A stretch of 32,000 nucleotides of DNA from Methylorubrum extorquens (GCA_900234795.1 LT962688.1:600001-632000); one strand, 5' to 3'. Numbered from the stretch's first letter, positions 13,305 to 27,782 are shown. Notes: generated by a model from the letters alone, not told the origin. Program-made: numbers and translations.

Positions 13305-13333
13305 CGGCACAAAGTTCAAGCTTTGCAGCCGCT
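13305..13333. terminator. Hairpin between convergent genes (candidate bidirectional terminator)
   Basis: gcggcacaaag-ttcaag-ctttgcagccgc starts immediately after the TAG at 13302-13304 and lies 16 nt before the convergent stop at 13349. Confidence 0.45.
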
Positions 13334-13348
13334 ACAGACTCATCTCGA

Positions 13349-13672
13349 TCAGCAGCTCAGACGGCGGCGCTCACGGCGACCGAAGGTCTGGTAGTGCGCA
13401 GCTCCGGATTCCATCTGGCCCCGTCGGACCGCGCGGAGCACGTCCGGATTGCAGCGCAGATACTCGCGCTCATCGAAGCCGTAATCGCGCCGGCCATAGC
13501 CACGACCACCATAACCACGGCCGCGGTCCTCGTCGTCGTAATCGCGGCCACCATAGCCACGGCCGCGTTCTTCGTAGCCATAGTCACGGCTGCCATAGGG
13601 CTGGGCCGACACTGAGGCGATGGATCCCATCAAGCCCAGGCCTACGGCCGCCACTGCATAAATCGCCTTCAT
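13349..13672 (-). CDS. Small secreted low-complexity protein with RGRGYGGRDY repeats and a Cys-flanked C-terminal NPDV...HY..FG module
   Basis: ATG at 13672 is preceded by GAGGAG. Signal peptide MKAIYAVAAVGLGLMGSIASVSA/QP, then a G/R/Y/D/E-rich repeat region, then EYLRCNPDVLRAVRRGQMESGAAHYQTFGRRERRRLSC. Confidence 0.6.
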   Translation of the reverse strand: MKAIYAVAAVGLGLMGSIASVSAQPYGSRDYGYEERGRGYGGRDYDDEDRGRGYGGRGYGRRDYGFDEREYLRCNPDVLRAVRRGQMESGAAHYQTFGRRERRRLSC

Positions 13673-13802
13673 ATCGGGTGGTCTCCTCATCAGCCGCTAG
13701 GAACGCGACGAAACGAATTTTGGTTCGCGGCCGGGGCCGAACGGCCGTGCTTGTGTCTCGCATGCCTCGCCCGAACGGTCATGGTGGGGTGGCTTCGATG
13801 TT

Positions 13803-15506
13803 TCAATCGCCCGCCAGCGCCTTCTCGCGGATCGCCGTGAGGCTCAGGCCCGGCGTGATCGCATCGACCGAGAACTTCACGTGGATGATCGCCGGGCGCT
13901 GCGCCGCCAGGGCCTCCTCCAACGCCGCCGGAAAATCCTCGGTCCGCTCCACGGTGAAGCCGACGCCGCCGAAGGCGCGGGCATAGGCGGCAAAGTCCGG
14001 GTTTACGAGGTCGGTGGCGAGGACGCGACCCGGAAAATCGCGCTCCTGATGCATGCGGATCGTGCCGTAGCTCGCATTGTCGGCGACGATGCAGACGATG
14101 TTCAGGCCGTACTGCACCGCGGTCGCGAATTCCTGGCCGTTCATCAGGAAGTCGCCGTCACCGTTGATTGAGATCACGGTGCGTTCGGGAAAGATCCGCT
14201 TCATCGCCACAGCCGCCGGGACGCCGTAGCCCATCGAGCCGGAGGTCGGCGCCATGTGGGTGGCAAGGCGGCGGAAGCGGTAGAAGCGGTGGATCCAAGC
14301 GGCGTAGTTGCCCGCGCCGTTGCACAGGATCGCGTCCTCCGGCAGCGCCTCGCGCAGATGCACCATCACCTGCCCGAGATTGACCGGGCCGGGCTGCGGC
14401 GTCGGGGTCTGCGACCACGCCAGATATGCGTCATGGGCCGCGCGGGTCTCGGCCGCCCACGGGACGGAAGCGGGCGCATCGAGCCGCGCCAGAGCCGCCG
14501 CCATCCGGGCCGGCGCGGCGGTGATGCCGAGATGCGGAACGTAGACCCGGCCGAGTTCCTCCGCTCCGGGATGAATATGGACGAGGCGGGTGCGGGGGGC
14601 CGGGATGTCGAGGAGCGAATAGGTCTGGCTCGCGACCTCGCCGAGGCGGCCGCCGAGCACGATCATCAGGTCGGCGGACTTGGCCCGCGCCACCAGCTTC
14701 GGGTTGGCGGCAAGCCCGAGATCGCCCGCGTAGTTCGGATGCAGCGGGTCGAACAGCGGCAGGCGGCGGTAGCTCGTGGCCACCGGCAGATCGAAGGCTT
14801 CAGCAAAGCGGCGGATATCGGCATAGGCCTGCTCGGTCCAGCGGCTGCCGCCGAGCACCAGGAAAGGGCTTTTGGCCTCCGCCAGCAGGGCGGCGAGGGA
14901 CGCGAGATCCTCCGCGCCGGGCGCGGCCTCGACGGCTTGGAAGGGCGGGGCCAGCAGCCCTTCCGCGGCATCCTTCAGCATGTCCTTCGGCAGCGCCACC
15001 ACCACCGGACCCGGCCGGCCGCCGGTGGCGGTGTGGAAGGCGCGCGAGACGTATTCCGGCATCCGCGCGCCGGTCTCGATCTCGGTGGCCCATTTCGCGA
15101 TCGGCCCGAAGGCGGCGCGGTAATCGACCTCCTGCCACGCCTCGCGGTCGCGCAGACCCCGCTCGATCTGGCCGACGAACAGGATCATCGGCGTCGAATC
15201 CTGCTGGGCGATGTGGATGCCGGCCGAGGCGTTGGTGGCGCCGGGACCGCGGGTGACGAAGCAGATGCCGGGTTGCCCCGTCGCCTTGCCGTGGGCTTCC
15301 GCCATCATCGCCGCGCCACCCTCCTGGCGGCAGACGGTGAGGGCGATGCCCGATTCGTAGAGCGCATCGAGCACCGGCAGGTAGCTCTCGCCCGGCACTG
15401 CGAAGACATGGGTGACGCCGTTGGCCGCGAGTTGGTCCACGAGCGCCTGGGCGGCGTTCCGCCCGCGGCTTCGGGCGGGGAGGGCGGCGTCTGGGCTCTG
15501 GGACAT
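13803..15506 (-). CDS. Thiamine-diphosphate-dependent enzyme of the acetolactate synthase large-subunit family (substrate unknown)
   Basis: Start at MSQSPDAALP (ATG 15506). N-terminal VTHVFAVPGESYLPVLDAL. ThDP motif GSMGYGVPAAVA...INGDGDFLMNGQE...VADNASYG. The 243-codon upstream extension in the ORF track has no family features and runs antisense into the flavin reductase gene. Confidence 0.8.
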   Translation of the reverse strand: MSQSPDAALPARSRGRNAAQALVDQLAANGVTHVFAVPGESYLPVLDALYESGIALTVCRQEGGAAMMAEAHGKATGQPGICFVTRGPGATNASAGIHIAQQDSTPMILFVGQIERGLRDREAWQEVDYRAAFGPIAKWATEIETGARMPEYVSRAFHTATGGRPGPVVVALPKDMLKDAAEGLLAPPFQAVEAAPGAEDLASLAALLAEAKSPFLVLGGSRWTEQAYADIRRFAEAFDLPVATSYRRLPLFDPLHPNYAGDLGLAANPKLVARAKSADLMIVLGGRLGEVASQTYSLLDIPAPRTRLVHIHPGAEELGRVYVPHLGITAAPARMAAALARLDAPASVPWAAETRAAHDAYLAWSQTPTPQPGPVNLGQVMVHLREALPEDAILCNGAGNYAAWIHRFYRFRRLATHMAPTSGSMGYGVPAAVAMKRIFPERTVISINGDGDFLMNGQEFATAVQYGLNIVCIVADNASYGTIRMHQERDFPGRVLATDLVNPDFAAYARAFGGVGFTVERTEDFPAALEEALAAQRPAIIHVKFSVDAITPGLSLTAIREKALAGD

Positions 15507-15578
15507 CGCTTCGATCTCGCTTGACGGCAGGACGCGTCCCGGTTCGGGACCATCCCTCGGCACATCCTGCGGTTCGTA

Positions 15579-15599
15579 CCGGAACTGAACAGTTTCCGG
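15579..15599. promoter_or_regulatory. Near-perfect palindrome in the divergent promoter region (candidate operator)
   Basis: ccggaactg-aa-cagtttccgg lies between the divergent ThDP-enzyme and flavin-reductase genes. Confidence 0.25.
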
Positions 15600-15803
15600 C
15601 CCGTCCAGCCGGGCCCTGGACTTGCACAGACGAGCCGCAAGGACAGGCAACGTCATAGAGATGAACCGATAACGTCCGGTTTCGACCGGTGCGGAACGGG
15701 CAGGTTTCTCAAGGTCCCATTTCACATCGACGAACGGATTGCGAACCATGCTTGCGCACCGGAGATCATCGACACCGGGCACCTCGGCCGGCTCGTTCGG
15801 CGG

Positions 15804-16391
15804 ATGGGGGGCGTGATGGCCGCCGCCGCGCTGGCGCCGGAGCCAGCCATCGACGGGGAGCTCCTCAAGCAGGCGATGCGCCGCCTCGTCGGCGGGGTCG
15901 TCGTGATCACCGCCGGAACCGGCGAGGACCGGGTCGGGCTCACCGCGACCTCGGCCGTCTCCCTCTCCGTCGATCCGCCGACCATGCTGGTCTGCGTCAA
16001 CCGCGCCTCCTCGACCTGGCCGGTCATCGCCCGGCGGCGGCATTTCTGCGTCAGCATCCTCGGGGCCGGGCAGCAGGCGACCGCCGAGCGCTTTGCCGGC
16101 ATCGGCGGGCTGCGGGGCGCCGCCCGCTATCGCGGCGCGGATTGGACGATCATGGAATCGGGCGCCTCCGGTCTCACCGAGGCGCAGGCCATCGTCGATT
16201 GCGCGCTGGAAGAGGTCATCGAGCGGCACAGCCACGCCATCCTCCTCGGCGCGGTGCGGGCAGTGCGTCTGAACCGGATCGAGCGGCCCTCCCTGGCCTA
16301 TGGCGGCGGGCGCTTCATCGGGATCTCACCGCATGAGGCGGCACGCGGCACCGGCCGCATTCACAGTGCCGCTGACAACAAGACAGATTAA
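15804..16391 (+). CDS. Flavin reductase (FMN-binding split-barrel, HpaC/NtaB-like)
   Basis: LVGGVVVITAGTGEDRVGLTATSAVSLSVDPPTMLVCV is the characteristic Flavin_Reduct core. The start is ATG 15804 or 15816. Confidence 0.8.
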   Translation: MGGVMAAAALAPEPAIDGELLKQAMRRLVGGVVVITAGTGEDRVGLTATSAVSLSVDPPTMLVCVNRASSTWPVIARRRHFCVSILGAGQQATAERFAGIGGLRGAARYRGADWTIMESGASGLTEAQAIVDCALEEVIERHSHAILLGAVRAVRLNRIERPSLAYGGGRFIGISPHEAARGTGRIHSAADNKTD

Positions 16392-16524
16392 CCAGCAACA
16401 CACTTAACATCGATAAATGCTTTTTCGGCACAATCAGCAAGAGTATTGATAAAACTCAGGCTGTATTGAAATCGAAGCGGCCACAGATCAATCCAGTCGG
16501 CACAGGCCAAAGGGAAAAAGGACA
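16392..16524 (+). promoter_or_regulatory. AT-rich island (about 44% G+C by hand count) upstream of the carrier-protein cassette, with a direct repeat GTATTGA spaced 20 bp apart
   Basis: GTATTGA occurs at 16443-16449 and 16463-16469. AGGA lies 4 nt before the ATG at 16525. I could not place a convincing -35/-10 pair. Confidence 0.4.
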
Positions 16525-16794
16525 ATGTCGCAAGCGGTGGCAGCCAGCGTCGCGGATCGCACCATGGGCCTCGCCTACGCGATCGCCGCGCGCCACACGA
16601 TCAAGCCGAAATTCGATCAAGCGGACGCCCTGGTCGATGTCGGGCTCTCGTCGCTCGATCTCGTCAACCTGATGGTCGCGGTCGAGGCGGAGTTCGACAT
16701 CATGATCCCGCCCGCGAGCCTGACGCCGAAGAACTTCTACTCGATCGAGACCATCGCCCGGATGGTCGAGAGCGTGCGCGGCCCGAACGCCTGA
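16525..16794 (+). CDS. Carrier protein 1 (phosphopantetheine-binding, ACP/PCP-like)
   Basis: 89 aa. DVGLSSLDLVNLMVAVEAEF matches the carrier-protein helix-II attachment motif, with Ser in LSSLD. Confidence 0.8.
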   Translation: MSQAVAASVADRTMGLAYAIAARHTIKPKFDQADALVDVGLSSLDLVNLMVAVEAEFDIMIPPASLTPKNFYSIETIARMVESVRGPNA

Positions 16795-16889
16795 GCGGCC
16801 AAGTCCGGATCGCCCAGACTGCGCCGCCCCTCACGAACATCCCTGACGTGCCGCCGGCCCGGCCGGCTTCAGTCCAACGGAGCCCAGCC

Positions 16890-18092
16890 ATGACGATGCA
16901 GCCCACGACCCGGCCGGACGGTTACGTCGGCGATGCCGCCGACCTTTTGACCCGCGCGGCGGCCGCCGCCGCGATCGCCGCCACCCATGCGGACGCGGTG
17001 GACCGCGACGGGCGCTTCCCCGAGGAAGCCGTCGCCGCCTTCCGCTCGCAGCGCCTGCTCGGTGCGGCCGTGCCGATCGAACTCGGCGGGGAGGGCGCCT
17101 CGGTCCGGATGCTGGCCGAAATCTGCTACGTGCTGGGCCGCGCCTGCGCCTCCTCGGCGATGATCTTCGCCATGCACCAGACCAAGGTGGCCTGCCTGAT
17201 CCGGCATGGCCGCGGCGAGCCCTGGCAGGACGGCCTCTTGCGCCGCATCGCCGGCGAACAGCTCCTGATGGCGTCCTCGACGACCGAGGGCCAGGGCGGC
17301 GGCAATGTCCGCTCCTCCTCCGCGGCGATCGAGGCCGACGGCGATGCAGTCACCCTGGAGCGGGCCGCGACCGTAATTTCCTACGGCGCCCAGGCCGACG
17401 GCGTCGTCACCGTCGCCCGCCGCTCGGCCGAGGCCGGCCCCTCCGACCAAGTGCTCTGCGTCTTCCTGCGTGAGGACTACACCCTGGAGCGCCTGAGCGG
17501 CTGGGAAACGCTCGGCATGCGCGGCACCTGCAGCAGCGGCTTCCGACTCGTCGCCCGCGGCCGCCCCGAGCAGGTGCTCGCCGCCCGCTACAGCGACCTC
17601 CACAACCGGACCATGACGCCGGTCTCGCACATCCTCTGGTCGAGCGCCTGGACCGGCATCGCCGCCTCCGCCGTCGATCGCGCCCAGGCCTTCACCCGCA
17701 CGGCGATGCGCGGCGCGGGCGGCGTCGCCCCGCCCGGCGCGCTGCACTACGCGCGCGCCGTCTCCAGCCTGAAGCAGGCCCGCGCCCTCGTCACGCAGGC
17801 GCTCGACACCTTCGAGGGAGCCGAGGGCGACCCGGCGGCTTTGGCCGGCCTCGACGTGCAGACCGCGCTGACGATGCTGAAGGTCGAAGTCTCCGAACTC
17901 GCCGTCGCCACCGTGTCGAGCGCGCTGCGCGCCAATGGGCTCGCCGGCTACCGCCAGGACGGCGCGTTCAGCATCGGCCGGGCGCTGCGCGACATCCTCT
18001 CGGCACCGATCATGATCCACAACGACCGGATCCTGGCCAACCTCGCCACCGCGACGCTGATGTCGCCGGTCGCCGCCTCGCTCAGCGCCTGA
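16890..18092 (+). CDS. Acyl-CoA dehydrogenase-fold flavoenzyme lacking the MCAD-type catalytic Glu
   Basis: ATG 16890 is preceded by GGAG. The ~400-aa ACAD architecture includes ASSTTEGQGGGNVRSS, which is like the (S/T)E..GSD segment. The C-terminal RALRDILSAPIMIHNDRILANLA aligns to R-D-x(6)-I-Y-E-G-T, with E replaced by I/H. Confidence 0.75.
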   Translation: MTMQPTTRPDGYVGDAADLLTRAAAAAAIAATHADAVDRDGRFPEEAVAAFRSQRLLGAAVPIELGGEGASVRMLAEICYVLGRACASSAMIFAMHQTKVACLIRHGRGEPWQDGLLRRIAGEQLLMASSTTEGQGGGNVRSSSAAIEADGDAVTLERAATVISYGAQADGVVTVARRSAEAGPSDQVLCVFLREDYTLERLSGWETLGMRGTCSSGFRLVARGRPEQVLAARYSDLHNRTMTPVSHILWSSAWTGIAASAVDRAQAFTRTAMRGAGGVAPPGALHYARAVSSLKQARALVTQALDTFEGAEGDPAALAGLDVQTALTMLKVEVSELAVATVSSALRANGLAGYRQDGAFSIGRALRDILSAPIMIHNDRILANLATATLMSPVAASLSA

Positions 18093-18123
18093 AGGCGCTC
18101 GGCGACGTTCGTTCCTGCCTCGA

Positions 18124-18223
18124 ACGCCGGCGGTCGCCTCCGCGACCTTGGCTCTCGCTACGCTCGACGCCTCGGCTTGGCCGAGGCCCGCTCCGCGGGG
18201 CGCTCTTCGCGCCCGACAGGCGG
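18124..18223 (+). repeat. Intergenic structured repeat, copy B (inside the carrier-protein cassette)
   Basis: Same conserved flanks as 12258-12367. The central hairpin here is gcctcggc-ttg-gccgaggc (18169-18187), which differs in sequence from copy A but sits in the same position. Confidence 0.8.
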
Positions 18224-18265
18224 AGCACAGGCTCCACTGCCCCCTTTGCCGAAGGACTGCCCGCC

Positions 18266-19198
18266 ATGAACATGTCCGTGATGAACGCGCCGGCCTCGCC
18301 GACCGCGACCGACCCGCTCGACGCCCTGTTCGATGCGATGTTCAAGCCGATGAACGCGCAGGGCGTCTACGCCCGCACCGGCGCCTACGAGTCGGTGGTG
18401 GAGGCGCTGGCCGCCTTCATCTCGGCGCGGCGCGAGGCCGAGACGGAGGTGTTCCGCTTCCCGCCGGTGATGAGCCGGGCGCATCTGGAGCGGCACGGCT
18501 ACCTCAAGAGCTTCCCGAACCTCCTCGGCTGCGTCTCCTGCCTGGAAGGCACCGAGACGGAGATCCGCGCCTCGGCCGACAAGCATCTGGAGGGCGGCGA
18601 CTGGACCGCGGACCTCGAGACCGCCGACCTCGTGCTGACCCCGGCTGCCTGCTACCCGGTCTACCCGATCGCCGCCGCCCGCGGAGCGGTGCCGGCCACC
18701 GGCTACTGCTTCGATGTCGCCTGCGACTGCTTCCGCCGTGAGCCCTCGCGCCATCTCGACCGGCTGCAATCCTTCCGGATGCGCGAATACGTCCGCATCG
18801 GCACGCCGGAGCAGATCGTCGCCTTCCGCGAGAGCTGGATCGAGACCGCCACCGCGATGGCCGACGAACTCGGGCTGCCCTACACGGTCGAGACCGCGAG
18901 CGACCCGTTCTTCGGCCGGCTCGGCCAGATCATGGCCTTCAGCCAGCTCGAACAGGCCTTGAAGTTCGAGCTGCTGATCCCGCTCCGGGGGGCGGCCGCC
19001 GGCACCGCCTGCATGAGCTTCAACTATCACCGCGAGCATTTCGGCACGACCTGGGGCCTCAACCTGGAGGATGGCGAGCCCGCCCATACCGGTTGCGTCG
19101 CCTTCGGCATGGACCGCCTCGCGGTGGCCCTGTTCGCCACCCACGGCGAGCGCATCGACGCGTGGCCGGCCCCGGTCCGCGCGGCGCTGAAGCTCTGA
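18266..19198 (+). CDS. Amino acid--[acyl-carrier-protein] ligase. This is a truncated class-II, SerRS-like aaRS catalytic core without a tRNA-binding domain.
   Basis: 310 aa. Blocks FPPVMSRAHLERHGYLKSFPNLLGCV and TPAACYPVYP. Motif-2-like DCFRREPSRHLDRLQSFRMREY. ASDPFFGR and CMSFNYHREHFGTTWG. Motif-3-like HTGCVAFGMDRLAVALF. There is no N-terminal coiled-coil or anticodon domain. Confidence 0.85.
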   Translation: MNMSVMNAPASPTATDPLDALFDAMFKPMNAQGVYARTGAYESVVEALAAFISARREAETEVFRFPPVMSRAHLERHGYLKSFPNLLGCVSCLEGTETEIRASADKHLEGGDWTADLETADLVLTPAACYPVYPIAAARGAVPATGYCFDVACDCFRREPSRHLDRLQSFRMREYVRIGTPEQIVAFRESWIETATAMADELGLPYTVETASDPFFGRLGQIMAFSQLEQALKFELLIPLRGAAAGTACMSFNYHREHFGTTWGLNLEDGEPAHTGCVAFGMDRLAVALFATHGERIDAWPAPVRAALKL

Positions 19199-19215
19199 CG
19201 TCAAAGCGCCGTCAG

Positions 19216-20133
19216 ATGCCGCTCGATCCGCATGTCAGCCGCTTCCTCGACATGATGGCGCTCGGAAGCTCGGACGGCATCACCCTCGACGCCCGCCGGG
19301 AGGGGATGCGCGGGCTCGCGCGCCTCGCCGGGCTGACCGCCGAGGGCGTCGCGACCCGTGACCTCGTCCTGCCGGGCCCGGCCGGGCCGATTTCCGCGCG
19401 GCTCTACGCGCCCGAGGGCAGCGCGAGCGGCCCCGGCCTCGTCTACCTGCATGGCGGCGGCCTCGTGACCGGCGGCCTCGACACCCATGACGGACTCTGC
19501 CGGGTGCTGGCCGAGGCCGGCGCCCTGCGCATCGTCTCGGTCGATTACCGGCTCGCGCCCGAACACCCGTTCCCGGCCGCCCTCGACGACGCGCTGGCGG
19601 CGATGGACGGGGTCGCCGCGCAGGCGGACACGCTCGGGATCGATCCGGCCCGGCTCGGGATCGGCGGCGATTCCGCCGGGGCCGGGCTCGCGGCACGGGT
19701 CTGCCAGGAACGGCGCGGCGGCCCGATCCGGGCGCAGCTCCTGATCTGCCCCGTGCTCGACGTCCACGGCAGCTACCCCTCGCGCCGCGATTTCGCTCAA
19801 GGATACTTCCTCGACGAGGCGACGATCCGGCGCGACCTTGCGGCCTGCGGCCCCGAGGCCGCCGGCCCGTCGCCCCGTCTCTCGCCCCTGCGCGAGGCGG
19901 ATCTTACCGGCCTGCCCCCGGCCCGCATCCACACGGCGGAGTACGATCCCGTCCGCGACGAGGGGGCGGCCTATGCCGCGCGTCTGGAGCGGGCGGGCGT
20001 CGAGACCGCCCACACCGTTCACGCCGGCATGATCCACTTCTTCTACGGCCTCGGGCGGCTGGTGCCGCGCGGCCGGCCGATCCTGTCCGAGATCGCCCGC
20101 GACTTCGGCGCCTGCCTCCGCGGCGCCTCCTAA
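19216..20133 (+). CDS. Alpha/beta-hydrolase, hormone-sensitive-lipase family (family IV esterase)
   Basis: Oxyanion motif YLHGGGLVTGG, nucleophile elbow GGDSAGAGL, then DPVRDEG and HAGMIHFF for Asp/His. ATG 19216 lies 17 nt after the ligase stop. Confidence 0.8.
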   Translation: MPLDPHVSRFLDMMALGSSDGITLDARREGMRGLARLAGLTAEGVATRDLVLPGPAGPISARLYAPEGSASGPGLVYLHGGGLVTGGLDTHDGLCRVLAEAGALRIVSVDYRLAPEHPFPAALDDALAAMDGVAAQADTLGIDPARLGIGGDSAGAGLAARVCQERRGGPIRAQLLICPVLDVHGSYPSRRDFAQGYFLDEATIRRDLAACGPEAAGPSPRLSPLREADLTGLPPARIHTAEYDPVRDEGAAYAARLERAGVETAHTVHAGMIHFFYGLGRLVPRGRPILSEIARDFGACLRGAS

Positions 20134-20183
20134 CCCCACCCCTTGTCCACCCCTTGCCCAACCCAGCCTTGAGGAGAGCCACC

Positions 20184-20441
20184 ATGTCCCTGCGTGAGAC
20201 CGTCTTCGCCGAGATCGCCGCCATCGCCGCCGAGCAGGAAAAGGCGATGCCGCCGATCACCGACGACCTCGTGATGCTCGACACCGAGTTCGACTCGCTC
20301 TGCTTCGCGCTCCTCGTCGCGCGGATGGAGGATCTCACCGGCGCCGACCCGTTCGGCGAGATGGATGCCTCCGACCTGCCGGTGACGGTCGGCGACCTCG
20401 TCGCCCTCTACGACCGCGCCGCGGCCCGGCAGGCGGCCTGA
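20184..20441 (+). CDS. Carrier protein 2 (ACP/PCP-like)
   Basis: 85 aa from ATG 20184, with RBS GAGGAG upstream. LDTEFDSLCFALLVARME contains the DSL phosphopantetheine attachment motif. Confidence 0.8.
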   Translation: MSLRETVFAEIAAIAAEQEKAMPPITDDLVMLDTEFDSLCFALLVARMEDLTGADPFGEMDASDLPVTVGDLVALYDRAAARQAA

Positions 20442-20446
20442 CCCCG

Positions 20447-21808
20447 ATGATCCTGCGCGAGAGGCTTCTGGCGGCGGGCGGACTCGAGGGCCTGTTCCTG
20501 TCCGACCACCGCAGCAAACAAGATCTCGCCGGGATCGTCTCCGGCGAGCGCGACGCCGCCGCGACCGCGGCGCTCGCCGGCCGCCGGGTGCTGCTCGCGG
20601 TCGGCGGGCAGATGGCGGCGGCCCGCGCCATGATCGCGCTCGACGGCCTCGCGGCCCGGCTCGCCCTCGTCCCCCCGAAGCTCGCGCCGGAGCACATCGC
20701 CCGGATCGCATTGGATTCCGAGGCGGAGATCTGCGTCACCGATGCCGAGGGGCTGCCCCCCGACGCGCTGCCGGGCCTGCCCCGGATCGACGCGGCCGAC
20801 GCGTTCCGCGCGGGCTCCGAGACAGTGCGGGAGACGGAATGGGCACTGGCCACCTCCGGCACCACCGGCGCGCCGAAGCTCGTCGCCCACACCCTCGAAG
20901 GCCTCGCCGGCGGCATCAACACCGCCGCGGCGCCGGAGCCCGGCACGGTGTGGAGCACCTTCTACGACATCCGCCGCTACGGCGGGCTCCAAGTATTCCT
21001 GCGGGCGATGCTCGGGCCGTCCTCGCTCGTGCTCTCCGACGCGGGCGAGCCGGTGCGCGACTATCTCATCCGCGTCGGCGCGGCGGGCGTCACCCACATC
21101 CTCGGCACGCCCTCGCACTGGCGCCTCGCCCTGATGAGCGCGGCGCTCGACCGGCTGAGCCCCCGCTACGTGCGGCTCTCGGGCGAGATCGCCGACCAGA
21201 ACATCCTCGACGCCCTGCGCGACGCCTTCCCTGACGCGCGCATCGCCCACGCCTACGCCTCGACCGAGGGCGGGGTCGGCTTCACCGTCGAGGACGGGCA
21301 GGAGGGTTTCCCGGCCGCGCTGATCGGCACCCGCGCCGGGATCGAGATCACCGTGCGCGAGGACAGCCTGTTCGTGCGCTCCGGCCGCACCGGGCGTCGC
21401 TATCTCGGCGCGGCGCCCGAGGCGCTGATCGCCGCGGACGGCTTCATCGACACCGGCGACCTCGTGGAGCGACGGGGCGAGCGCTACCACTTCCTCGGCC
21501 GGCGCAGCGGCGTGATCAATGTCGGCGGCGCCAAGGTGCAGCCGGAGGAGGTCGAGACCGTCATCAACGTCTTCCCCGGCGTCTCGATGTCCCGCGTGCG
21601 CGCCCGGCCCAACCCGATCCTCGGCGCGGTGGTCGAGGCGGAGGTGGTGTTGCGCGCCGATGCGGGCACGGATCAGGCGGTGCTGAAGAAAGCGATCATC
21701 GCCCACTGCCGCCCGCGCCTGGCCGGACACAAGGTGCCGGCGAGCGTGAAATTCGTGGATGCGCTGCCGATCACGTCGGGCGGCAAGCTGGTGCGGAGGG
21801 GCGCGTGA
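20447..21808 (+). CDS. Adenylate-forming acyl/aryl ligase (ANL superfamily). Likely loads carrier protein 2.
   Basis: Motifs ATSGTTGAPKLVAHT, YASTEGG, GDLVERRGERYHFLGRRSGVINVGGAKV and PITSGGKLVRR. Starts 5 nt after the carrier protein 2 stop. Confidence 0.8.
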   Translation: MILRERLLAAGGLEGLFLSDHRSKQDLAGIVSGERDAAATAALAGRRVLLAVGGQMAAARAMIALDGLAARLALVPPKLAPEHIARIALDSEAEICVTDAEGLPPDALPGLPRIDAADAFRAGSETVRETEWALATSGTTGAPKLVAHTLEGLAGGINTAAAPEPGTVWSTFYDIRRYGGLQVFLRAMLGPSSLVLSDAGEPVRDYLIRVGAAGVTHILGTPSHWRLALMSAALDRLSPRYVRLSGEIADQNILDALRDAFPDARIAHAYASTEGGVGFTVEDGQEGFPAALIGTRAGIEITVREDSLFVRSGRTGRRYLGAAPEALIAADGFIDTGDLVERRGERYHFLGRRSGVINVGGAKVQPEEVETVINVFPGVSMSRVRARPNPILGAVVEAEVVLRADAGTDQAVLKKAIIAHCRPRLAGHKVPASVKFVDALPITSGGKLVRRGA

Positions 21809-22548
21809 GCGACGATCTCGAGACCGGACGCCTCGTCGTCGTCACGGGCGCGAGCCGCGGGCTCGGCCTCGCCATGGCCGAAACCCTTGCCGCCGACGGG
21901 TTTCGCGTGGTGGCGCTCGCCCGGCGACCGAGCGAGGCGCTGGAGGCGGCGCAAGTGGCTGCTCCCGGCCGGATCGCTTTCATGGCCGCGGATCTCGGCG
22001 AGATCGACGCGCTCCAGGCTCTCGCCCAGAGAATCCGGGCCGAGCACGGGCCGGTCTACGGCCTCGTCAACAACGCTGCGCTCGGCACGCCCGGCCTGCT
22101 CACGACGATGCCGGCAAGCAAGATCGCCGAACTCGTCCACCTCAACACCCTCGCGCCGATGGTGCTGACCAAGTATCTCGCCCGCGGGATGATGACGGCC
22201 GGCGCCGGCCGCATCGTCAATGTTAGCTCGATCATCGCCTTCACCGGCTACAACGCCCTGTCGGTCTACGCCGCGACCAAGGCCTCGATGATCGGCTTCA
22301 CCAAGTCGCTCGCCCGCGAGGTCGGGCGGCTGGGGGTAACGGTGAACGCGGTGGCGCCCGGCTTCATCGAGACGGCGATGACCGGCGAGATGGACGAGGC
22401 GGAGCGCGGGCGCGTGGCCAACCGCAGCGCCCTCAAGCGGCTGGCCGAGCCGCAGGACGTGGCCGACGCCGTCGCCTACCTGATGTCGGACCGCGCCCGT
22501 AACGTCACCGGCACCGTTCTGACCATCGACGCCGGCAGCACCGCCTGA
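21805..22548 (+). CDS. Short-chain dehydrogenase/reductase (FabG-like)
   Basis: Motifs VVVTGASRGLGLA, NNAA and YAATKAS. The GTG start overlaps the ligase stop as GTGA, and GGAGGGG lies upstream. Confidence 0.85.
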   Translation: MSDDLETGRLVVVTGASRGLGLAMAETLAADGFRVVALARRPSEALEAAQVAAPGRIAFMAADLGEIDALQALAQRIRAEHGPVYGLVNNAALGTPGLLTTMPASKIAELVHLNTLAPMVLTKYLARGMMTAGAGRIVNVSSIIAFTGYNALSVYAATKASMIGFTKSLAREVGRLGVTVNAVAPGFIETAMTGEMDEAERGRVANRSALKRLAEPQDVADAVAYLMSDRARNVTGTVLTIDAGSTA

Positions 22549-22569
22549 AGCCGGCCAGCAACCTTGAGC

Positions 22570-22720
22570 CATGACTTCACTCGATAGGAATGTGCGCGAG
22601 ATCAATAAATTTCGGTTGGTCTGGGCGAAAAATCAACGTCTATACTAATTCAACCAACAAGACCGGCAGTCCCGAAACGGCATCGGCCGGCTGGCATTGA
22701 TTTCGCTCTGTTTCGAGCGC
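22570..22720. promoter_or_regulatory. AT-rich island (about 40% G+C over 22581-22660 by hand count) separating the cassette from the GNAT/polysaccharide genes. Weak sigma70-like TTGGTC-N19-TATACT.
   Basis: The composition drop was read directly. TTGGTC is at 22616-22621 and TATACT at 22641-22646. The 19-nt spacer is long, so the promoter call is weak. Confidence 0.3.
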
Positions 22721-22823
22721 GTCTCCGAGCGGGACGAGAGCGCGCCTTGCTCACGGTTCGATCGCGCGGAGCCGTGGAACGAAATGGGTGCCGGACAGCG
22801 CGACGAGCCGGAGGGGGCCGCCG

Positions 22824-23768
22824 ATGATTGGGGTGAGCGAGACCGTGGAAGACGTCCCACCCGCGGGGGAGGGCGTCCGCAGCGCGCGGGTCAAGGTCCG
22901 CTGCCGCACCATCGAGGAGGATGACCTCGCCTCCGTGGTACGGCTGTTACAGGTCGGCTTCCCCGATCGCTCCGAACCCTATTGGCGGACCGGGCTCGAC
23001 CGGCACCGCACCCAGCCGCTGCCCGACGACGTGCCGCGCTACGGCTATGTGCTGGAACGGGACGGGGCCATTGTCGGCGTCCTGCTCGCACTCTACCGCA
23101 TGGTGACGGACGAGGCCGGCACGCATCTGCGCTGCAACCTTTCGAGCTGGTACGTTCTGCCGGAATTCCGCGCGCTGGGCACCCTGCTCGACGGCTTCGC
23201 CATGCGCGACCGGCGGGTGACCTACACCAACGTCTCGCCCGCTCCGCAGACGTGGCAGATTCATAAAGCGCGCGGCTTCAAGCCGGTCTGCTCGGGCCAG
23301 ATGCTCGTCATGCCGCTGCTCGCCGACCTCGGCCGGGGGCGCCGCGTCCGCGTGGCCACGCCGGAGACCCTACGCCTGCTGCCGGAGCCGGAGGCCCGGC
23401 TGGTGGCCGACCACCTCGCCTATGGCTGCATCGGCCTCGTCTGTTCGGATGGGGAGAAGGCGTGGGCCGTCCTGTTCCAGCGGCGCGCCATCAAGCTGCG
23501 GCCGGGGGAAACCCGGTGGCCGCGCCTGCCCTGCCTTCAGCTCGTCTACCGCTCGACCGCGCTCGACCTGTCCGCCTTCCTCGGCGCGATCGGCCGGCAT
23601 CTCATGCTGCACCACGCCATGCCGTGGTTCGTGCTCGATGCCGTGGGCAAGCTGCCGGGCTTTGCCGGACACTTCTTCGAGGGCCGCGCCCCGAAATACG
23701 CCCGCGGCCCGAACCCGCCGGCCACCGGAGACCTCACCTATACCGAGGTCGTCCTGTTCGGTGCCTAA
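22824..23768 (+). CDS. GNAT-fold acyltransferase-like protein with a C-terminal second lobe (314 aa)
   Basis: ATG 22824 is preceded by GGAGGGGG. The N-terminal lobe reads IEEDDLASVVRLLQVGF...YGYVLERDGAIVGVLLALY...SSWYVLPEFRALG, which looks like GNAT beta4-alpha3. The C-terminal ~150 aa has no motif I can name. Confidence 0.55.
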   Translation: MIGVSETVEDVPPAGEGVRSARVKVRCRTIEEDDLASVVRLLQVGFPDRSEPYWRTGLDRHRTQPLPDDVPRYGYVLERDGAIVGVLLALYRMVTDEAGTHLRCNLSSWYVLPEFRALGTLLDGFAMRDRRVTYTNVSPAPQTWQIHKARGFKPVCSGQMLVMPLLADLGRGRRVRVATPETLRLLPEPEARLVADHLAYGCIGLVCSDGEKAWAVLFQRRAIKLRPGETRWPRLPCLQLVYRSTALDLSAFLGAIGRHLMLHHAMPWFVLDAVGKLPGFAGHFFEGRAPKYARGPNPPATGDLTYTEVVLFGA

Positions 23769-24109: not shown

Positions 24110-25480
24110 ATGCTGAACTTCCTCTTGGTCGTCGCGGTGGCGGTCTGGTTCGTGCTGCTCTACCCGCTGGCGCGCCACCGACTCGAGACCCGGATGGGGC
24201 CGCTGAACGGTCCGCTGGCGGTCCCGTTCGCCCTGACGACGATCTTCGCGCTGCTGCCGCTGGTCTTCAACGTCCCGCGGGATGACGGCAACGCCGTGCT
24301 GGAGCAGGGGCTGACGGCCTCCAACCTCGCGCTCATCGTCATGACCGGGCTGACCGGGCTCTATCTCATCGCCCGGATCGCGGTGGACCGGCGCGTCCTG
24401 CTGGTGGCGTTCTCGATGCCGTACCTGCCGTTCACGCTGATGATCCTCGTGAACGGCCTCAGCACCGCGTGGTCGATCGTGCCGAGCTACACCGTCTATC
24501 GGACCGTGGAGCTTGCGATCTTCACGCTCACCTCAATCCTGATCTTCGACCGCAGCGATATCGAGCGGCGGCTGGCCAACCTCTTCGCGCTGTTCACCGT
24601 CGCGTGGCTGGTCGCCACGACACCGATCATCCTCGACAATCTGGCGCATGGGGTCGTGTTCTCGTCGGCCAAGCACAACCTGATGCCATATCTCTGCGCC
24701 GCGCACGCCTTCCTCGTCATCTTCGACGACCGCATCCCGCACCGGCGCGCCCATCTCCTGCTTGCCTTCGTCGGCTTCGTCATCGCGGGCTCGGCCGCGA
24801 GCACCGCCTCGCTCATCGCGGCAGCCCCCGGCCTGATGGTGGCGTCACGCCACCGCCGCCTACGCCTCCTCGGCTACACGGCCTTCACCGTCTACCTGAT
24901 CGTGTTCGTGGTGCTGATGGTCGGCCTGTCGGCCTTCCCCGCCCTGCTCGACGTGGTCTCGGTCGTGCTGCAGAAGCCCCCGGAAGAGCTGGCCGACGCC
25001 ACCGGGCGCGGCACCTTCTGGCCGGTCTTCATCGAGGCGACCAAGGACCGCTTCGTCGGCGCCGGCTACGCGGCGGGAGACCGCTTCATCCAGCTCCTCA
25101 TTCCCACCACGGCTTTGGCGGAGACGCTGGCACGCGACGCCGTGTTCATCTCCAGCTCGCACAACATGGTGCTGAGCGCCTGGGCCGGCACCGGCCTGAT
25201 CGGGCTCGGCCTCTGCGCGATGGTGCTGGGGACCGCCCTGCGCTGGGGGATGAAGCTCGACCGTCCCGGACGCCGCCTCGTCGCTACCTGCGTGTTCTTC
25301 CTGATCCTCAACGGCATGACGACGCCGGGCATCTTTCAGGACTGGAACATCAACGTCCTCACCTTCGTGGGTCTGTTGGCCTATGCCCGCATCGGCGCCC
25401 TACGTCGCGCGCCGGTGGGCGCGGCCACCCCCGTTCCGGCGGCCACCGCCTTCGGTCTCCCGGTTGCGGCGTCCGCGTGA
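24110..25480 (+). CDS. Wzy/O-antigen-ligase-like polysaccharide polymerase (second copy in the window)
   Basis: 456 aa and polytopic. Wzy_C-like region GSAASTASLIAA...GRGTFWPVFIEATKDRFVGAGYAAG...SSSHNMVLSAWAGTGLIGL. Confidence 0.7.
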   Translation: MLNFLLVVAVAVWFVLLYPLARHRLETRMGPLNGPLAVPFALTTIFALLPLVFNVPRDDGNAVLEQGLTASNLALIVMTGLTGLYLIARIAVDRRVLLVAFSMPYLPFTLMILVNGLSTAWSIVPSYTVYRTVELAIFTLTSILIFDRSDIERRLANLFALFTVAWLVATTPIILDNLAHGVVFSSAKHNLMPYLCAAHAFLVIFDDRIPHRRAHLLLAFVGFVIAGSAASTASLIAAAPGLMVASRHRRLRLLGYTAFTVYLIVFVVLMVGLSAFPALLDVVSVVLQKPPEELADATGRGTFWPVFIEATKDRFVGAGYAAGDRFIQLLIPTTALAETLARDAVFISSSHNMVLSAWAGTGLIGLGLCAMVLGTALRWGMKLDRPGRRLVATCVFFLILNGMTTPGIFQDWNINVLTFVGLLAYARIGALRRAPVGAATPVPAATAFGLPVAASA

Positions 25481-25658
25481 TGCGCATCCTGGCGCACATC
25501 TTGAAGTGTGAGACCCAAACGACCTTCGGCCCGCGGCCGCTGTCCCGAAACGAGAAGGATCGTCCCCGGACGACCCACTCGGGGACGGAAATGGCGGACC
25601 GGATCGGTTGCTGCGGGCTGACGAGGCCCGCAGGCGCGTATTGTTCGAGAGTTTCGCG

Positions 25659-27782
25659 ATGACGATGATCGAGCGGATGCCTTCGCGGTTCTTCGTCGGC
25701 GCCGAGCCGGGCAAGCCGGACGTGACGCCTGAACCCTGGTTCCTCGAACCGCGTGAGATCGGACGGGCCCTGCGCGCGCGCTGGGCGCTCGTGCTGGCCC
25801 CGGCTGTGCTCCTCTTGGTGGCGGCGGTGGCGTGGCTCGCGCTGGTGCCGCCGCTCTACGCCGCCGTGACGCAGATCCTGATCGACCCGCGCGGCATCCA
25901 AGTGGTCAAGGACGGCGTGACGCCCTCGGATCAGGCGAGCGATGCGAGCCTGTTCCTCGTCGACAGCCAGATCCGGGTCCTCATCTCCGACGAAGTGCTG
26001 CGGCAGGTCGTGACTCGGTTCAAGCTCGATCAAGACCCGGACTTCGTTCGTCCCGCCTCGCTGCTCGAGACGCTCAAGAGCCGCCTCTCCTCGCTGATCG
26101 TCACCGCCGGCGGCCCTGCCGATGACACGCTCACCGCCCTGCGCACGCTGCGCGATCGCACCACCGCGCGCCGCCTGGAGCGCAGCTTCGTGGTCGAGCT
26201 CGCCGTCTCCAGCGAGGAGCGCCGGAAATCCGCCGAGCTCGCCCAGGCCATCGCCGAAACCTACCTCACCACCGTCTCGCAGGCGCAGGCGCAGGTCACC
26301 CGCAAGGCCGGCGAGGCGGTGTCGAGCCGCCTCGGCGAGTTGCAGGACGACCTCCGGCAGGCCGAGGACAAGGCGCAGAAGTTCCGCGCCGCCAACAACC
26401 TCGTCGGCACCCGCGGCCAGCTCGTCAGCGAGCAGGCGCTGACCCAGCTCAACCAGCAGCTCGGCGCGGCGCGTGCCCGGGCCGGCGAACTGCGCGGGCG
26501 GCTCGCCCAGATCGAAGCGGTCGCCAACGGGCGGGCCGACCTCAACTCGGTGACCGAAATCGTCCAGTCCACGACGGTCGCGCAATTGCGCGCCCAGCTC
26601 GCCCAGATCGAGGCGGCCCGGGCCGACACCCTGTCCAACCTCGGCCCCCGTCACCCCACCCTGCGCACCGGCGAGCTGCAGGTGCAGACCCTGCGCAACG
26701 ACATCAACGCCGAGATCCGCCGCATCGCCGCGGCCACGCGCAACGACTACCGGTCGGCCTTGTCCAACGAGGCCTCGCTCGCCGCCACCCTGGAGAGCCG
26801 CAAGAAGGAGGCTCTGTCCGTCGACAAGAGCTTCGTGCGCCTGCGCGAACTGGAGCGGCAGGTCGAAGCGAGCCGCGCGGTCTACGAGGCCTTCCTCGTC
26901 CGCGCCCGCGAGCTTCAGGAGCAGCAGCGCCTCGACACCTCGACCTCGCGCGTCATCTCGCCCGCCTCGCTGCCGGAGCGCCGGCTCGGGCCGCCGATCC
27001 CGGCCATCTTCGCCGCGGCGCTGGCGGCCGGGCTCGGCCTCGGCACCGCGCTCGCCCTCCTCGCCGTGCCGGCCGCGGGGCGGATCGGTTCGCGCCGCCG
27101 GTTTCAGCAGCTCGCGGGGCTCCCCGTGGTCGCCGCCCTGCCGGCCAAGGTGCCGACCCGGACGCGAAGCAAGGCAGGCAGCGAATCCCTGCGCGCCGAC
27201 ACCGCCTACGACGTGGCCGTGGCCCGTCTCGGCAGCCGTCTGCAGCGCGACTTCGGCGCCACGCGGCCGACGGTGGTCCTCGTTACCTCGGCGGACGACC
27301 GGAGCGGCAAGTCGGAGCTGGCGCGCAGCCTCGCCGCCTCGGCCGCGCTCGACGGCCAGCGGGTGCTGCTCGTCGATGCCGACCCGGAGGCGATGATCTC
27401 GCGCGATCTCCGGAGCCAGGCCAAGCGCGGCGCCGCCGAGGTGCTGCGGACGCATTCGGGGCTTAGCGACGCGCTGGTCGAGGGGCCGACCGGGGTCAAG
27501 ATCCTGCCCTTCGACGACGCGGCTCTGCGCCTCGGCACCGCGGCCTATACCGGCGCGATCCTGACGGCGGCGGCCGCTTTCGACACGGTCTTCGTCGATA
27601 TCGGTCTGATCGGCACCGACATCGCCGCCGAGCGTCTCGCCCAGGACCAGCGCTTCCCGGCCCTGCTGCTGACGGCCAGCGCCGCCCGCAGCGGCACCGC
27701 CCGGCTGCGGCGGGCGCTCGACGCCCTCGGCCGCGACCCGCGGGTGCAGCTCGTCATGACCGACGCCGAGGCCGAGGGGTGA
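25659..27782 (+). CDS. GumC/ExoP-like polysaccharide co-polymerase (Wzz domain, coiled coil, degenerate BY-kinase-like P-loop domain)
   Basis: ATG 25659. TM1 plus PLYAAVTQILIDPRG, then a long periplasmic coiled coil. TM2 is PPIPAIFAAALAAGLGLGTALALLAV. C-terminal VVLVTSADDRSGKSELA...VLLVDADPE...VFVDIG. No terminal Tyr cluster. Confidence 0.75.
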   Translation: MTMIERMPSRFFVGAEPGKPDVTPEPWFLEPREIGRALRARWALVLAPAVLLLVAAVAWLALVPPLYAAVTQILIDPRGIQVVKDGVTPSDQASDASLFLVDSQIRVLISDEVLRQVVTRFKLDQDPDFVRPASLLETLKSRLSSLIVTAGGPADDTLTALRTLRDRTTARRLERSFVVELAVSSEERRKSAELAQAIAETYLTTVSQAQAQVTRKAGEAVSSRLGELQDDLRQAEDKAQKFRAANNLVGTRGQLVSEQALTQLNQQLGAARARAGELRGRLAQIEAVANGRADLNSVTEIVQSTTVAQLRAQLAQIEAARADTLSNLGPRHPTLRTGELQVQTLRNDINAEIRRIAAATRNDYRSALSNEASLAATLESRKKEALSVDKSFVRLRELERQVEASRAVYEAFLVRARELQEQQRLDTSTSRVISPASLPERRLGPPIPAIFAAALAAGLGLGTALALLAVPAAGRIGSRRRFQQLAGLPVVAALPAKVPTRTRSKAGSESLRADTAYDVAVARLGSRLQRDFGATRPTVVLVTSADDRSGKSELARSLAASAALDGQRVLLVDADPEAMISRDLRSQAKRGAAEVLRTHSGLSDALVEGPTGVKILPFDDAALRLGTAAYTGAILTAAAAFDTVFVDIGLIGTDIAAERLAQDQRFPALLLTASAARSGTARLRRALDALGRDPRVQLVMTDAEAEG

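Follow-up and report, generated by a model that had tools for sequence, protein, structure and literature searches.

A carrier-protein-dependent gene cassette built on an amino acid:[carrier protein] ligase and its possible link to a Wzx/Wzy polysaccharide locus in Methylorubrum extorquens

Results

Gene content of the window

We analysed a stretch of 32,000 nucleotides, one strand, of Methylorubrum extorquens (GCA_900234795.1 LT962688.1:600001-632000), hereafter called the window, which carries a cassette of genes gathered around an amino acid:[carrier protein] ligase and, on both sides of it, genes of the Wzx/Wzy pathway of exopolysaccharide (EPS) synthesis (Table 1). Ligases of this type were reported in 2010 (Mocibob et al.) to charge Gly or Ala onto the phosphopantetheine arm of dedicated carrier proteins rather than onto tRNA, and have been cited as connecting ribosomal with non-ribosomal peptide synthesis. 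The original prediction, made from the sequence of the window, had described nine co-directional open reading frames (ORFs) from 15804 to 23768. All nine are present on the + strand, and eight of the nine family assignments hold, by Pfam and NCBIfam profiles or, as a probable assignment for the second carrier protein (CP2), by its DSL serine and an hhalign comparison; the ninth, a "GNAT-like" protein, is discussed below. The GTGA overlap between the ANL ligase and the short-chain dehydrogenase/reductase (SDR), at 21805-21808, and the AT-richness of the gaps 16392-16524 and 22549-22823 (GC 0.46-0.53 versus about 0.72) were also confirmed.

One genome per species was scanned for relatives of the ligase; more than 565 were returned, and the best 80 loci were analysed with 10-kb flanks (individual loci are designated by L numbers). 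The occurrence of each gene was counted by a tblastn pass over the 80 loci and by clustering all the ORFs of 81 loci, window included, de novo, and a range is given where the two counts differ. Families were assigned with Pfam and NCBIfam profiles, and the true frames in the upstream part were chosen by codon-position GC, which identified the ORFs 9979-10968 (+), 10975-11565 (+), 11624-12241 (-) and 14256-15524 (+) as antisense shadows of the MetY, cupin and thiamine diphosphate (ThDP) enzyme genes. A further sample consisted of ten genomes with orthologues of the window GNAT (47-87% identity).

Table 1. Genes and repeat elements of the window, with the cassette core first, followed by the accessory genes, the polysaccharide genes and the remaining features (aa, amino acids; TM, transmembrane).
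Feature	Position	Strand	Basis or remark
Amino acid:[carrier protein] ligase, Bll0957 orthologue	18266-19198	+	NF005479, PDB 3mey
CP1, dedicated carrier protein of the ligase (Bsr0959-type)	16525-16794	+	PP-binding E 3e-6; serine motif GLSSLD
ACAD-fold flavoenzyme (Bll0958-type), invariant ligase partner	16890-18092	+	Pfam ACAD N/M/C, all weak
Predicted tandem-GNAT acyltransferase	22824-23768	+	AlphaFold model, Foldseek; own AT-rich upstream region
ANL2, long-chain/FATP-type acyl-CoA synthetase	7143-9059	-	NF006134 757 bits, cutoff 625
MetA homoserine O-succinyltransferase	8984-9980	-	NF003776 385 bits, cutoff 358; apparent 1-nt frameshift near 9745-9750
MetY-type O-acetylhomoserine aminocarboxypropyltransferase (pyridoxal phosphate)	10013-11427	-	PF01053 E 5e-111; apparent 1-nt frameshift near 10146
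Cupin_3 (EutQ-like) protein	11786-12235	+	PF05899 E 1e-18
Class-IV (BCAT-type) aminotransferase	12423-13304	+	PF01063 E 8e-42; NF009896 467 bits, cutoff 262
ThDP-dependent enzyme (PRK08199, acetolactate-synthase-like)	13803-15500 (start approximate)	-	Three TPP_enzyme domains
HSL-family alpha/beta hydrolase (esterase/thioesterase candidate)	19216-20133	+	PF07859 Abhydrolase_3 E 2e-61
CP2, probable second carrier protein	20184-20441	+	Invariant DSL serine
ANL adenylating ligase, presumed CP2 loader	20447-21808	+	PF00501 AMP-binding and PF13193 AMP-binding_C
FabG-like SDR (3-oxoacyl reductase-type)	21805-22548	+	PF00106 E 2e-50; start overlaps ANL stop
HpaC/RutF-type flavin reductase, local addition	15804-16391	+	PF01613 Flavin_Reduct E 6e-32
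GT2-like glycosyltransferase (weak)	2204-3286	-	Glyco_tranf_2_4 E 0.003; GC3 0.83; 0/80 loci
Wzy_C (O-antigen polymerase/ligase-like) and right-handed beta-helix fusion	3088-5451	-	Wzy_C E 3e-14, Beta_helix E 4e-20
Wzx-type flippase (MOP superfamily)	5678-7012	+	No own Pfam match; about 9 TM segments
Wzy-type polymerase	24110-25480	+	PF04932 (Wzy_C) E 6e-9; same position in L085, L086
Polysaccharide co-polymerase, GumC-ExoP-like, C-terminal ATPase	25608-27782	+	Wzz, GNVR, CbiA
Right-handed beta-helix protein, right EPS block	27779-29833	+	PF13229 E 2e-13; kept in L085-L087, L089, L094
GT4 glycosyltransferase, runs off the window	30903-32000	-	
Three-hairpin dispersed repeat, copy 1	12246-12373	+	~120 nt, upstream of the aminotransferase
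Three-hairpin dispersed repeat, copy 2	18112-18230	+	Between ACAD and ligase
YgiQ-type radical SAM protein (Radical_SAM_N, DUF3362)	3-2057	+	Left edge

The ligase cassette is conserved as a unit

The ACAD-fold gene lies directly beside the ligase gene in 80/80 loci, and the core that recurs in the related loci is made of CP1, this flavoenzyme and the ligase, usually with the tandem GNAT. The members other than ACAD and ligase recur in 17-65 of the 81 loci with a shuffled order (9-10 for the cupin), across Methylobacteriaceae, Bosea, Caulobacterales, Rhizomicrobium, Rhodopseudomonas, photosynthetic Bradyrhizobium and metagenome-assembled genomes (MAGs) of beta- and gammaproteobacteria. Chance is far from sufficient to account for such co-occurrence. 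The genes stay together although their order and orientation vary widely, which is the signature of functional linkage; the cassette is thus syntenically conserved across genomes, as had been proposed, rather than being a set of genes that occur independently. The partners of the ligase can now be listed as a carrier protein, an unusual ACAD-fold enzyme, a tandem GNAT and a ten-gene accessory set with a homoserine/methionine flavour, held together as a unit across three proteobacterial classes (alpha, beta and gamma).

The commonest form of the cassette is a minimal core, CP1(-) / ACAD-ligase-GNAT(+), found in 38 loci, in Bradyrhizobium, which matches bsr0959 / bll0958-bll0957-(bll0956) of B. 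diazoefficiens. The two loading modules of unrelated folds that had been described in the window are both there, but they are not of equal standing: CP1, ACAD and ligase form the universal core, and the HSL hydrolase, CP2, ANL and SDR occur in about 30% of the loci.

The limits of the cassette had to be redrawn. It starts near 7143 and not at 15804, since six genes between 7143 and 15500 (ANL2, MetA, MetY, cupin, aminotransferase and ThDP enzyme) belong to the conserved neighbourhood. Inclusion of the class-IV aminotransferase, which had been suggested because it shares an upstream repeat with the ligase, is justified by synteny (23/81 loci, 66-86% identity) and not by the repeat. Conversely, the flavin reductase placed at the left end in the original prediction is present in 2/81 loci (the window and L004) and is not a conserved member; it also occurs in L085 and L088, and it adjoins the set only in the window, L004 and L085. 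As had been noted for the shorter interval, no ketosynthase, nonribosomal peptide synthetase condensation or dedicated thioesterase domain was found in any ORF from 7143 to 23768.

The ligase and CP1

The 310-aa product of the 18266-19198 gene matches NF005479 "amino acid--[acyl-carrier-protein] ligase" with 474 bits (cutoff 357) and PDB 3mey (Bll0957) with E 8e-135 and about 66% identity, which bears out its identification as an amino acid:[carrier protein] ligase. Seryl-tRNA synthetase (SerRS) models cover only residues ~118-306 (type-2 SerRS 3w3s, E 1e-17, residues 117-305): the protein corresponds to the catalytic core of a class II aminoacyl-tRNA synthetase, akin to methanogen-type SerRS, and has no tRNA-binding domain. 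Residues C129, E174, C277 and A279 align with Bll0957 C131, E176, C279 and A281 and are invariant in 81/81 orthologues. We take the first three of the Bll0957 residues to be zinc ligands and A281 to shape the small-substrate pocket, with a numbering that is presumably the published one and is consistent with our alignment. As these positions are invariant, glycine loading is the likely activity. The window enzyme would thus be a Gly-specific, Zn-dependent, SerRS-derived ligase of the Bll0957 type, its specificity for glycine being deduced from orthology.

CP1 is closest, among NCBIfam models, to the acyl carrier protein model NF005480 (50 bits, below cutoff). Its family is found in 65/81 loci, usually divergent from the ACAD gene; in the window the two are co-directional. 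A 2022 review states that the "biological role" of these ligases "remains unknown", and in the literature searched no subsequent paper assigns a function to Bll0957, Atu2573 or Bll6282, or a pathway or product to these ligases, as had been supposed. In the same literature bll0957 and bll0958 appear only within a PhaR regulon table.

The ACAD-fold flavoenzyme

PF02771 and PF00441 pass their cutoffs on the flavoenzyme, PF02770 falls short of its own (19.6 bits against 33.3), and the profile hits span full-length ACAD structures, in keeping with a three-domain ACAD fold. At the position of the ACAD catalytic glutamate (Y-E-G-T in canonical enzymes) the window protein has a histidine, and the 81 sequences show N in 72, H in 7 and S in 2; this position lies within a PIMI-x-NDRI motif invariant in the same sequences. 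When the alignment was read by eye, no Glu was found at the alternative position of the IVD type. Judged from these alignments, the flavoenzyme is a non-canonical ACAD without the catalytic glutamate.

Against the PDB, the family profile scored 52-79 bits with ACADs and 46-48 bits with DszC, KijD3, ORF36 and MsuC, about equidistant from dehydrogenases and from ACAD-fold oxygenases (DszC, nitrososynthases, MsuC); single-sequence and profile searches of the PDB did not assign the protein to either class. Its closest solved relative, 7p98, is a non-canonical ACAD that also lacks the catalytic Glu and carries out a 1,4-elimination (PMC9293079). We favour C-N bond oxidation or flavin-dependent oxygenation of a carrier-bound unit as the chemistry of the window enzyme.

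The tandem GNAT

The 22824-23768 product has no match in Pfam or NCBIfam, and the "GNAT-like" label therefore stands at the level of fold and not of family signature. Its AlphaFold model (pLDDT 91.3, pTM 0.86) matches Eis, Eis2 and N-myristoyltransferase (NMT) in Foldseek (probability 1.0, E 1e-9, TM-score about 0.5), the resemblance to NMT being one of fold, with 12-13% identity. According to the model, the protein comprises two GNAT lobes in one chain, in the manner of Eis and NMT. The CoA-pyrophosphate motif (Q/R-x-x-G-x-G/A) is degenerate, R-A-L-G-T-L in the window, and its Gly is not conserved in the family. This is compatible with, though no proof of, an acyl-S-carrier-protein donor.

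Members of the tandem-GNAT family adjoin the ligase in 60/81 loci. A clean paralogue split between ligase-linked and EPS-linked GNATs was considered and rejected: a neighbour-joining tree gave it no support, and the accessory-linked copy of M. haplocladii nests among the EPS-linked ones.

The accessory genes

To the left of the core, ANL2 is found in 24-25/81 loci (52-75% identity), MetA in 23-25, MetY in 30-32 (68-90% identity; 525 bits against TIGR01326, cutoff 495), the cupin in 9-10 and also in L088, and the ThDP enzyme in 17 (887 bits against NF006052, cutoff 539). To the right, the HSL hydrolase (275 bits with a LipP1-like model, below cutoff) is found in 25-31/81 loci, the ANL ligase in 25-26 and the SDR in 26-28. 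All NCBIfam matches of the ANL ligase are far below cutoff; TIGR03098, the exosortase-A/PEP-CTERM EPS-associated acyl-CoA ligase model with a cutoff of 592, gives 67 bits with ANL and 126 bits with ANL2. CP2 had no match in Pfam or NCBIfam even at E <= 1. Its DSL serine is invariant in 26 homologues, hhalign aligned it with the CP1 profile (probability 76%, E 2e-5) with the attachment serines in register, and in the 25/80 loci where it occurs it is always next to ANL.

The metA (9740-9750) and metY (10140-10150) genes of the window show one frame switch each, due to single extra bases relative to L081, one of them in a G-run. Both genes are intact in L081, a metagenome contig of 96% identity, and the frameshifts are due either to a mistake in the assembly or to pseudogenisation, specific to this strain, of two conserved cassette members.

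A methylthioadenosine (MTA) phosphorylase (NF006492, 548 bits) and the MTR-1-phosphate isomerase MtnA (NF004326, 482 bits) are encoded on the CP1 strand in about 46 Bradyrhizobium loci (within L013-L070), ~2-4 kb upstream of the ACAD gene, an arrangement that echoes the MetA/MetY association of other lineages. The association is nearly confined to one genus, and a functional link of the pair to CP1 was kept as a lead only. Taken with this pair, MetA, MetY, the aminotransferase, the ThDP enzyme and the cupin may point to keto or hydroxy acids derived from homoserine or methionine, which is the least secure part of our analysis.

The cassette is embedded in polysaccharide genes

The window cassette is bracketed on both sides by Wzx/Wzy-pathway genes. 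Downstream, the Wzy_C, Wzz/GNVR/CbiA (GumC/ExoP-like), beta-helix and GT4 genes are as first described; the upstream EPS genes (2204-7012) had been missed. Among the latter, the Wzy_C/beta-helix fusion has about 11 TM segments and is found in 0/80 loci. The flippase assignment relies on homologues of 45-50% identity, annotated as O-antigen export protein and containing PF01943/PF01554. Wzx-like relatives of the gene are located within or beside the cassette in L001, L004, L005 and L088, and next to the GNAT in L086, L087 and L089. The recurring membrane protein of ~450 aa had been considered as a DltB/MBOAT-like acyltransferase; this was ruled out, the protein being the Wzx flippase, and neither MBOAT/DltB nor DltD was matched by any annotated ORF of the window or in the Pfam tables of loci L085-L095. 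The proposed Dlt-like mechanism is therefore not supported. With no DltB- or DltD-like gene and a soluble GNAT, the modification, if its target is a glycan, would take place at the cytoplasmic face and be NodB/NodF/NodA-like rather than Dlt-like.

Polysaccharide genes stand beside or inside the set, with differing junctions, in the near relatives L001, L003, L004, L005, L075 and L088; they encode a GumC-like co-polymerase (beside the cassette in L003, L004, L005 and L075), GT4/DUF1972, GH5, GINT1_N-like and group-1 (GT4-type) glycosyltransferase proteins, and Wzx. Beyond the GT4 gene, where the window ends, relatives carry a NodB-type deacetylase (PF01522, Polysacc_deac_1) and a FemAB/Acetyltransf_6 protein (L085, 19064-20945; L086, 18011-20009; L087, 17497-19503). 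The presence of both in the EPS block suggests a polysaccharide with non-acetyl N-acyl or aminoacyl groups.

In the sample of ten genomes, the GNAT lies within an EPS block in six, in three layouts (L085, L086, L087, L089, L094 and L095), five of which, all except L095, also have GT4 and NodB-type deacetylase genes; in one (L088) it is inside the accessory set with glycosyltransferase genes alongside. The GNAT heads the EPS block in M. nodulans, sp. ID0610, Lichenibacterium, L094 and L095. In M. nodulans ORS 2060 the CP1-ACAD-ligase core is beside a WecG-type glycosyltransferase gene with no GNAT adjacent, and the GNAT gene is about 70 kb away, heading a block of Wzy, co-polymerase, beta-helix, GT4, deacetylase and FemAB-like genes. 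The EPS link first proposed for the window is thus recurrent, and rearranged, within Methylobacteriaceae, Bosea and Lichenibacterium; it is not general among the 80 loci, and the support it gives is real but lineage-limited. Through guilt by association, the tandem GNAT is the strongest candidate for a bridge linking cassette and EPS block.

Discussion

A possible role in polysaccharide N-acylation

The best overall explanation of these data, which we put forward tentatively, is that the cassette encodes a stand-alone thiotemplated pathway built on a Bll0957-type ligase and serving the lineage-specific N-acylation of amino sugars in a Wzx/Wzy polysaccharide. As orthology supports, the ligase would activate glycine with ATP and thioesterify it onto the phosphopantetheine arm of CP1. 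The flavoenzyme may then tailor the CP1-bound unit by redox chemistry, either oxidation of the C-N bond or N- or C-oxygenation with reduced flavin supplied by the local flavin reductase, and the tandem GNAT, in the cytoplasm, would transfer the acyl or aminoacyl moiety from the carrier to an amine. For Methylobacteriaceae, Bosea and Lichenibacterium, the most likely acceptor would be an amino sugar in the repeat unit of the Wzx/Wzy-dependent polysaccharide, which the NodB-type deacetylase encoded in the EPS block would have freed, so that an N-acyl exchange of the NodB/NodF/NodA kind would occur at the cytoplasmic face. The weakest step concerns MetA, MetY, the aminotransferase, the ThDP enzyme, the cupin, ANL2, ANL, CP2, SDR and the HSL hydrolase, which might build and load a second acid unit, possibly homoserine- or methionine-derived, with reduction by the SDR and loading onto CP2 by ANL. 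This second unit would elaborate the substituent or be joined to the glycine-derived one.

Several known systems share parts of this scheme. The nearest, Bll0957/Bsr0959 of Bradyrhizobium (Mocibob et al. 2010, 2013; PDB 3mey, 4h2s), has an orthologous ligase, a dedicated small carrier protein and the bll0958-type ACAD neighbour, but reportedly only its loading step has been characterised. In contrast to it, the window adds the CP2/ANL/SDR/hydrolase module, the methionine/homoserine-related set and the flavin reductase, has a co-directional instead of a divergent CP1, and embeds the set in a Wzx/Wzy locus. The DltABCD system, which D-alanylates teichoic acids, also decorates a cell-envelope polymer with an amino acid that an adenylating enzyme has first attached to a small carrier protein; the window ligase, however, derives from an aminoacyl-tRNA synthetase and not from the ANL family, transfer would fall to a soluble GNAT, the membrane protein that recurs here is Wzx, and CP1 gives 17 bits with the DltC model (cutoff 68).

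In rhizobial Nod factor synthesis, NodB removes the N-acetyl group of a sugar and NodA adds an acyl group from the dedicated carrier NodF. The EPS block of the window's relatives likewise has a PF01522 deacetylase next to GT4 and GNAT genes, although no NodA or NodE homologue is present here, the deacetylase gene is outside the window, the proposed donor is glycine-derived and not a fatty acid, and the acceptor would be a polysaccharide repeat unit instead of a chitooligosaccharide. FemABX and MprF, of GNAT fold, use aminoacyl-tRNA donors and move Gly, Ala or Lys onto envelope components. They are of the tandem-GNAT type, and a FemAB/Acetyltransf_6 gene is found in the same EPS block (L085-L087); by contrast, the donor proposed here is an aminoacyl-S-carrier protein, and the window GNAT matched Eis and NMT, not FemX, among the top 50 Foldseek hits.

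The altemicidin enzymes SbzL, SbzG and SbzI offer a biochemically established case in which a GNAT (SbzI) transfers an acyl group to an amine from a carrier protein and not from CoA (PMC6331615, PMC11685415). The logic is the one proposed here, namely an acid that is adenylated, loaded on a free-standing carrier protein and passed by a GNAT to an amine. Nevertheless, SbzL is an ANL AMP-ligase, which ruled it out as an aminoacyl-tRNA synthetase-like carrier-protein ligase and hence as part of a homologous characterised pathway; SbzI has been described simply as a GNAT, while the protein of the window is predicted to be a tandem GNAT; and in altemicidin the acceptor is an azaindane dinucleotide and there is no ACAD step. 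The ligase belongs to a known family, and what is new is the architecture of the pathway and its merger with a polysaccharide locus, a variant among carrier-protein-dependent acyl-transfer systems.

Several points weigh against a role in polysaccharide decoration. No homologue of the Wzy, beta-helix, GT4, GT2 or Wzx genes of the window was found in the 80 loci, and in most lineages (including the 46 Bradyrhizobium loci, Caulobacterales, Rhodopseudomonas and the beta- and gammaproteobacterial MAGs) no EPS genes were found beside the ligase; polysaccharide modification is therefore not demonstrable as the ancestral or general role. The adjacency in Methylobacteriaceae could come down to a few inherited juxtapositions, and phylogenetic inertia may account for the methionine-salvage genes near CP1 in Bradyrhizobium. 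Three of the ten sampled GNAT orthologues are in neither an EPS nor an accessory context. The ligase-adjacent GNAT copies share only 36-45% identity with the window copy, so the donor specificity may differ, and the EPS-linked clade might simply use acyl-CoA. The closest solved structure to the flavoenzyme, 7p98, is a true, though non-canonical, dehydrogenase. Lastly, the cassette gene set has no transporter, regulator or phosphopantetheinyl transferase, and fourteen enzymes are many for a simple substituent.

Alternative explanations

A free small molecule, with the EPS genes adjacent by accident, is nearly as likely as decoration of the polysaccharide, and we consider it a serious possibility. 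The product would be an N-acyl or otherwise modified amino acid, or a signal compound in which a glycine-derived unit is joined to a homoserine-, methionine- or S-adenosylmethionine-derived one, the GNAT or the HSL hydrolase forming or releasing it. In favour of such a product, the set of 14 genes is kept, in shuffled order, in classes where no EPS genes were found nearby, MetA and MetY accompany the ligase in 23-32 loci from many genera, and CP1 has MTA phosphorylase and MtnA as neighbours in about 46 Bradyrhizobium loci. An aminotransferase, a ThDP enzyme, an SDR and two ANL ligases are typical of building-block synthesis, and the M. nodulans core stands apart from the EPS block. The set is, however, devoid of an exporter, a regulator and a resistance gene. 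Moreover, the tandem GNAT, which only ACAD and CP1 surpass in frequency as a partner of the ligase, occurs time and again within EPS operons that include a deacetylase, and Wzx genes are inside the cassette neighbourhood in L001, L004, L005 and L088.

Two further explanations appear improbable. The product could be a membrane lipoamino acid or another lipid, for instance of the N-acyl-glycine type, made from a fatty acid that the FATP-type synthetase or ANL/CP2 activates, the SDR reduces and the NMT-like GNAT joins to Gly-S-CP1; ANL2 is indeed a long-chain acyl-CoA synthetase by NF006134 (above cutoff), the set includes a FabG-like SDR and a lipase-type hydrolase of the HSL family, and the GNAT model matches glycylpeptide N-myristoyltransferases. 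But this last likeness is confined to the fold (TM-score about 0.5, 12-13% identity), the minimal core, which is the commonest form (38 loci), is without a fatty-acid-activating enzyme, no match to an acyltransferase of the OlsB/OlsA or GlsB type was found, and the MetA, MetY, ThDP enzyme and aminotransferase genes would be left unexplained. Slightly less probable still is a catabolic function or nutrient salvage, of sulfur or methionine, with the flavoenzyme as an SfnB, DszC or desulfinase type and MetY recapturing sulfur. The NCBIfam matches of the flavoenzyme do include SfnB, DszC and 3-sulfinopropanoyl-CoA desulfinase, and its PDB matches MsuC, yet they are far below the family cutoffs (60 bits against 431 for SfnB). 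MetY passes the sulfhydrylase cutoff with 68-90% identity among loci, the ThDP enzyme is related to sulfoacetaldehyde acetyltransferase, and bll0957 and bll0958 respond to mutation of a metabolic regulator; dedicated carrier proteins and an amino-acid ligase are nevertheless hallmarks of biosynthesis, and no substrate transporter is present.

A broader form of the glycan hypothesis, which we hold to be rather unlikely, would make the amino acid:[carrier protein] ligase system a widespread proteobacterial, tRNA-independent route of aminoacyl-type glycan decoration, in which glycine is turned by the flavoenzyme, on the carrier, into an oxidised or N-oxygenated C2 unit and passed by the tandem GNAT to de-N-acetylated amino sugars of Wzx/Wzy polysaccharides while the accessory genes add a homoserine- or methionine-derived acid. 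If this were true, it would provide a new polysaccharide substituent and a first biological role for the enzyme family. The lineage-specific N-acylation favoured here would, if true, represent a new route for the amino-acid-derived decoration of polysaccharides; should the glycan link fail, these genes would indicate a small molecule, as yet undiscovered, that is common among rhizobia and methylotrophs. The lineage in which the ligase set physically merges with a polysaccharide locus gives a testable clue to its role, and Methylorubrum/Methylobacterium belongs to a group with established genetic tools.

Other features of the window

The same sequence of ~120 nt precedes the aminotransferase and ligase genes, as had been noticed, its two copies being 88-90% identical in two blocks. 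Both fold into three hairpins, of which the outer ones are conserved and the middle ones are wholly different in sequence. An Rfam search of the repeat gave no match at the gathering score and only noise at E <= 5. The repeat is absent from the 80 related loci, and in the 90%-identical L085 the ACAD-ligase gap is 39 nt long and has no repeat; a third copy (L084, 1176-1297, opposite orientation) lies on another contig beside an unrelated LTXXQ-family gene. On these grounds a riboswitch or co-regulatory element was ruled out. The repeat is species-specific and dispersed, probably a REP-like mobile intergenic element of the species group, and carries no information on pathway membership. Scanning for sigma-70 promoters and terminators gave nothing exceeding shuffled sequences.

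The YgiQ-type gene at the left edge was found in none of the related loci and seems to have no connection with the cassette. On the right, the interval 29834-30900 between the beta-helix and GT4 genes has a GC content of 0.60 (against about 0.70); its only ORF, 29894-30526 (+), has no family match, and in this region L085 has a 172-aa gene on the opposite strand.

Between the convergent Wzx and ANL2 genes, a 31-nt inverted repeat (7018-7048 / 7109-7139, 90% complementary) with palindromic arms (AAAGGGATCATCCCTTT) marks the left boundary of the cassette; it may be a terminator working in both directions or one more repeat element. Where the aminotransferase and ThDP enzyme genes converge, an ORF of 113 aa (13349-13690, -) encodes an N-terminal signal-peptide-like segment followed by RGYG/RDY-rich repeats, and three 43-nt direct repeats at 13465-13606 coincide with it.

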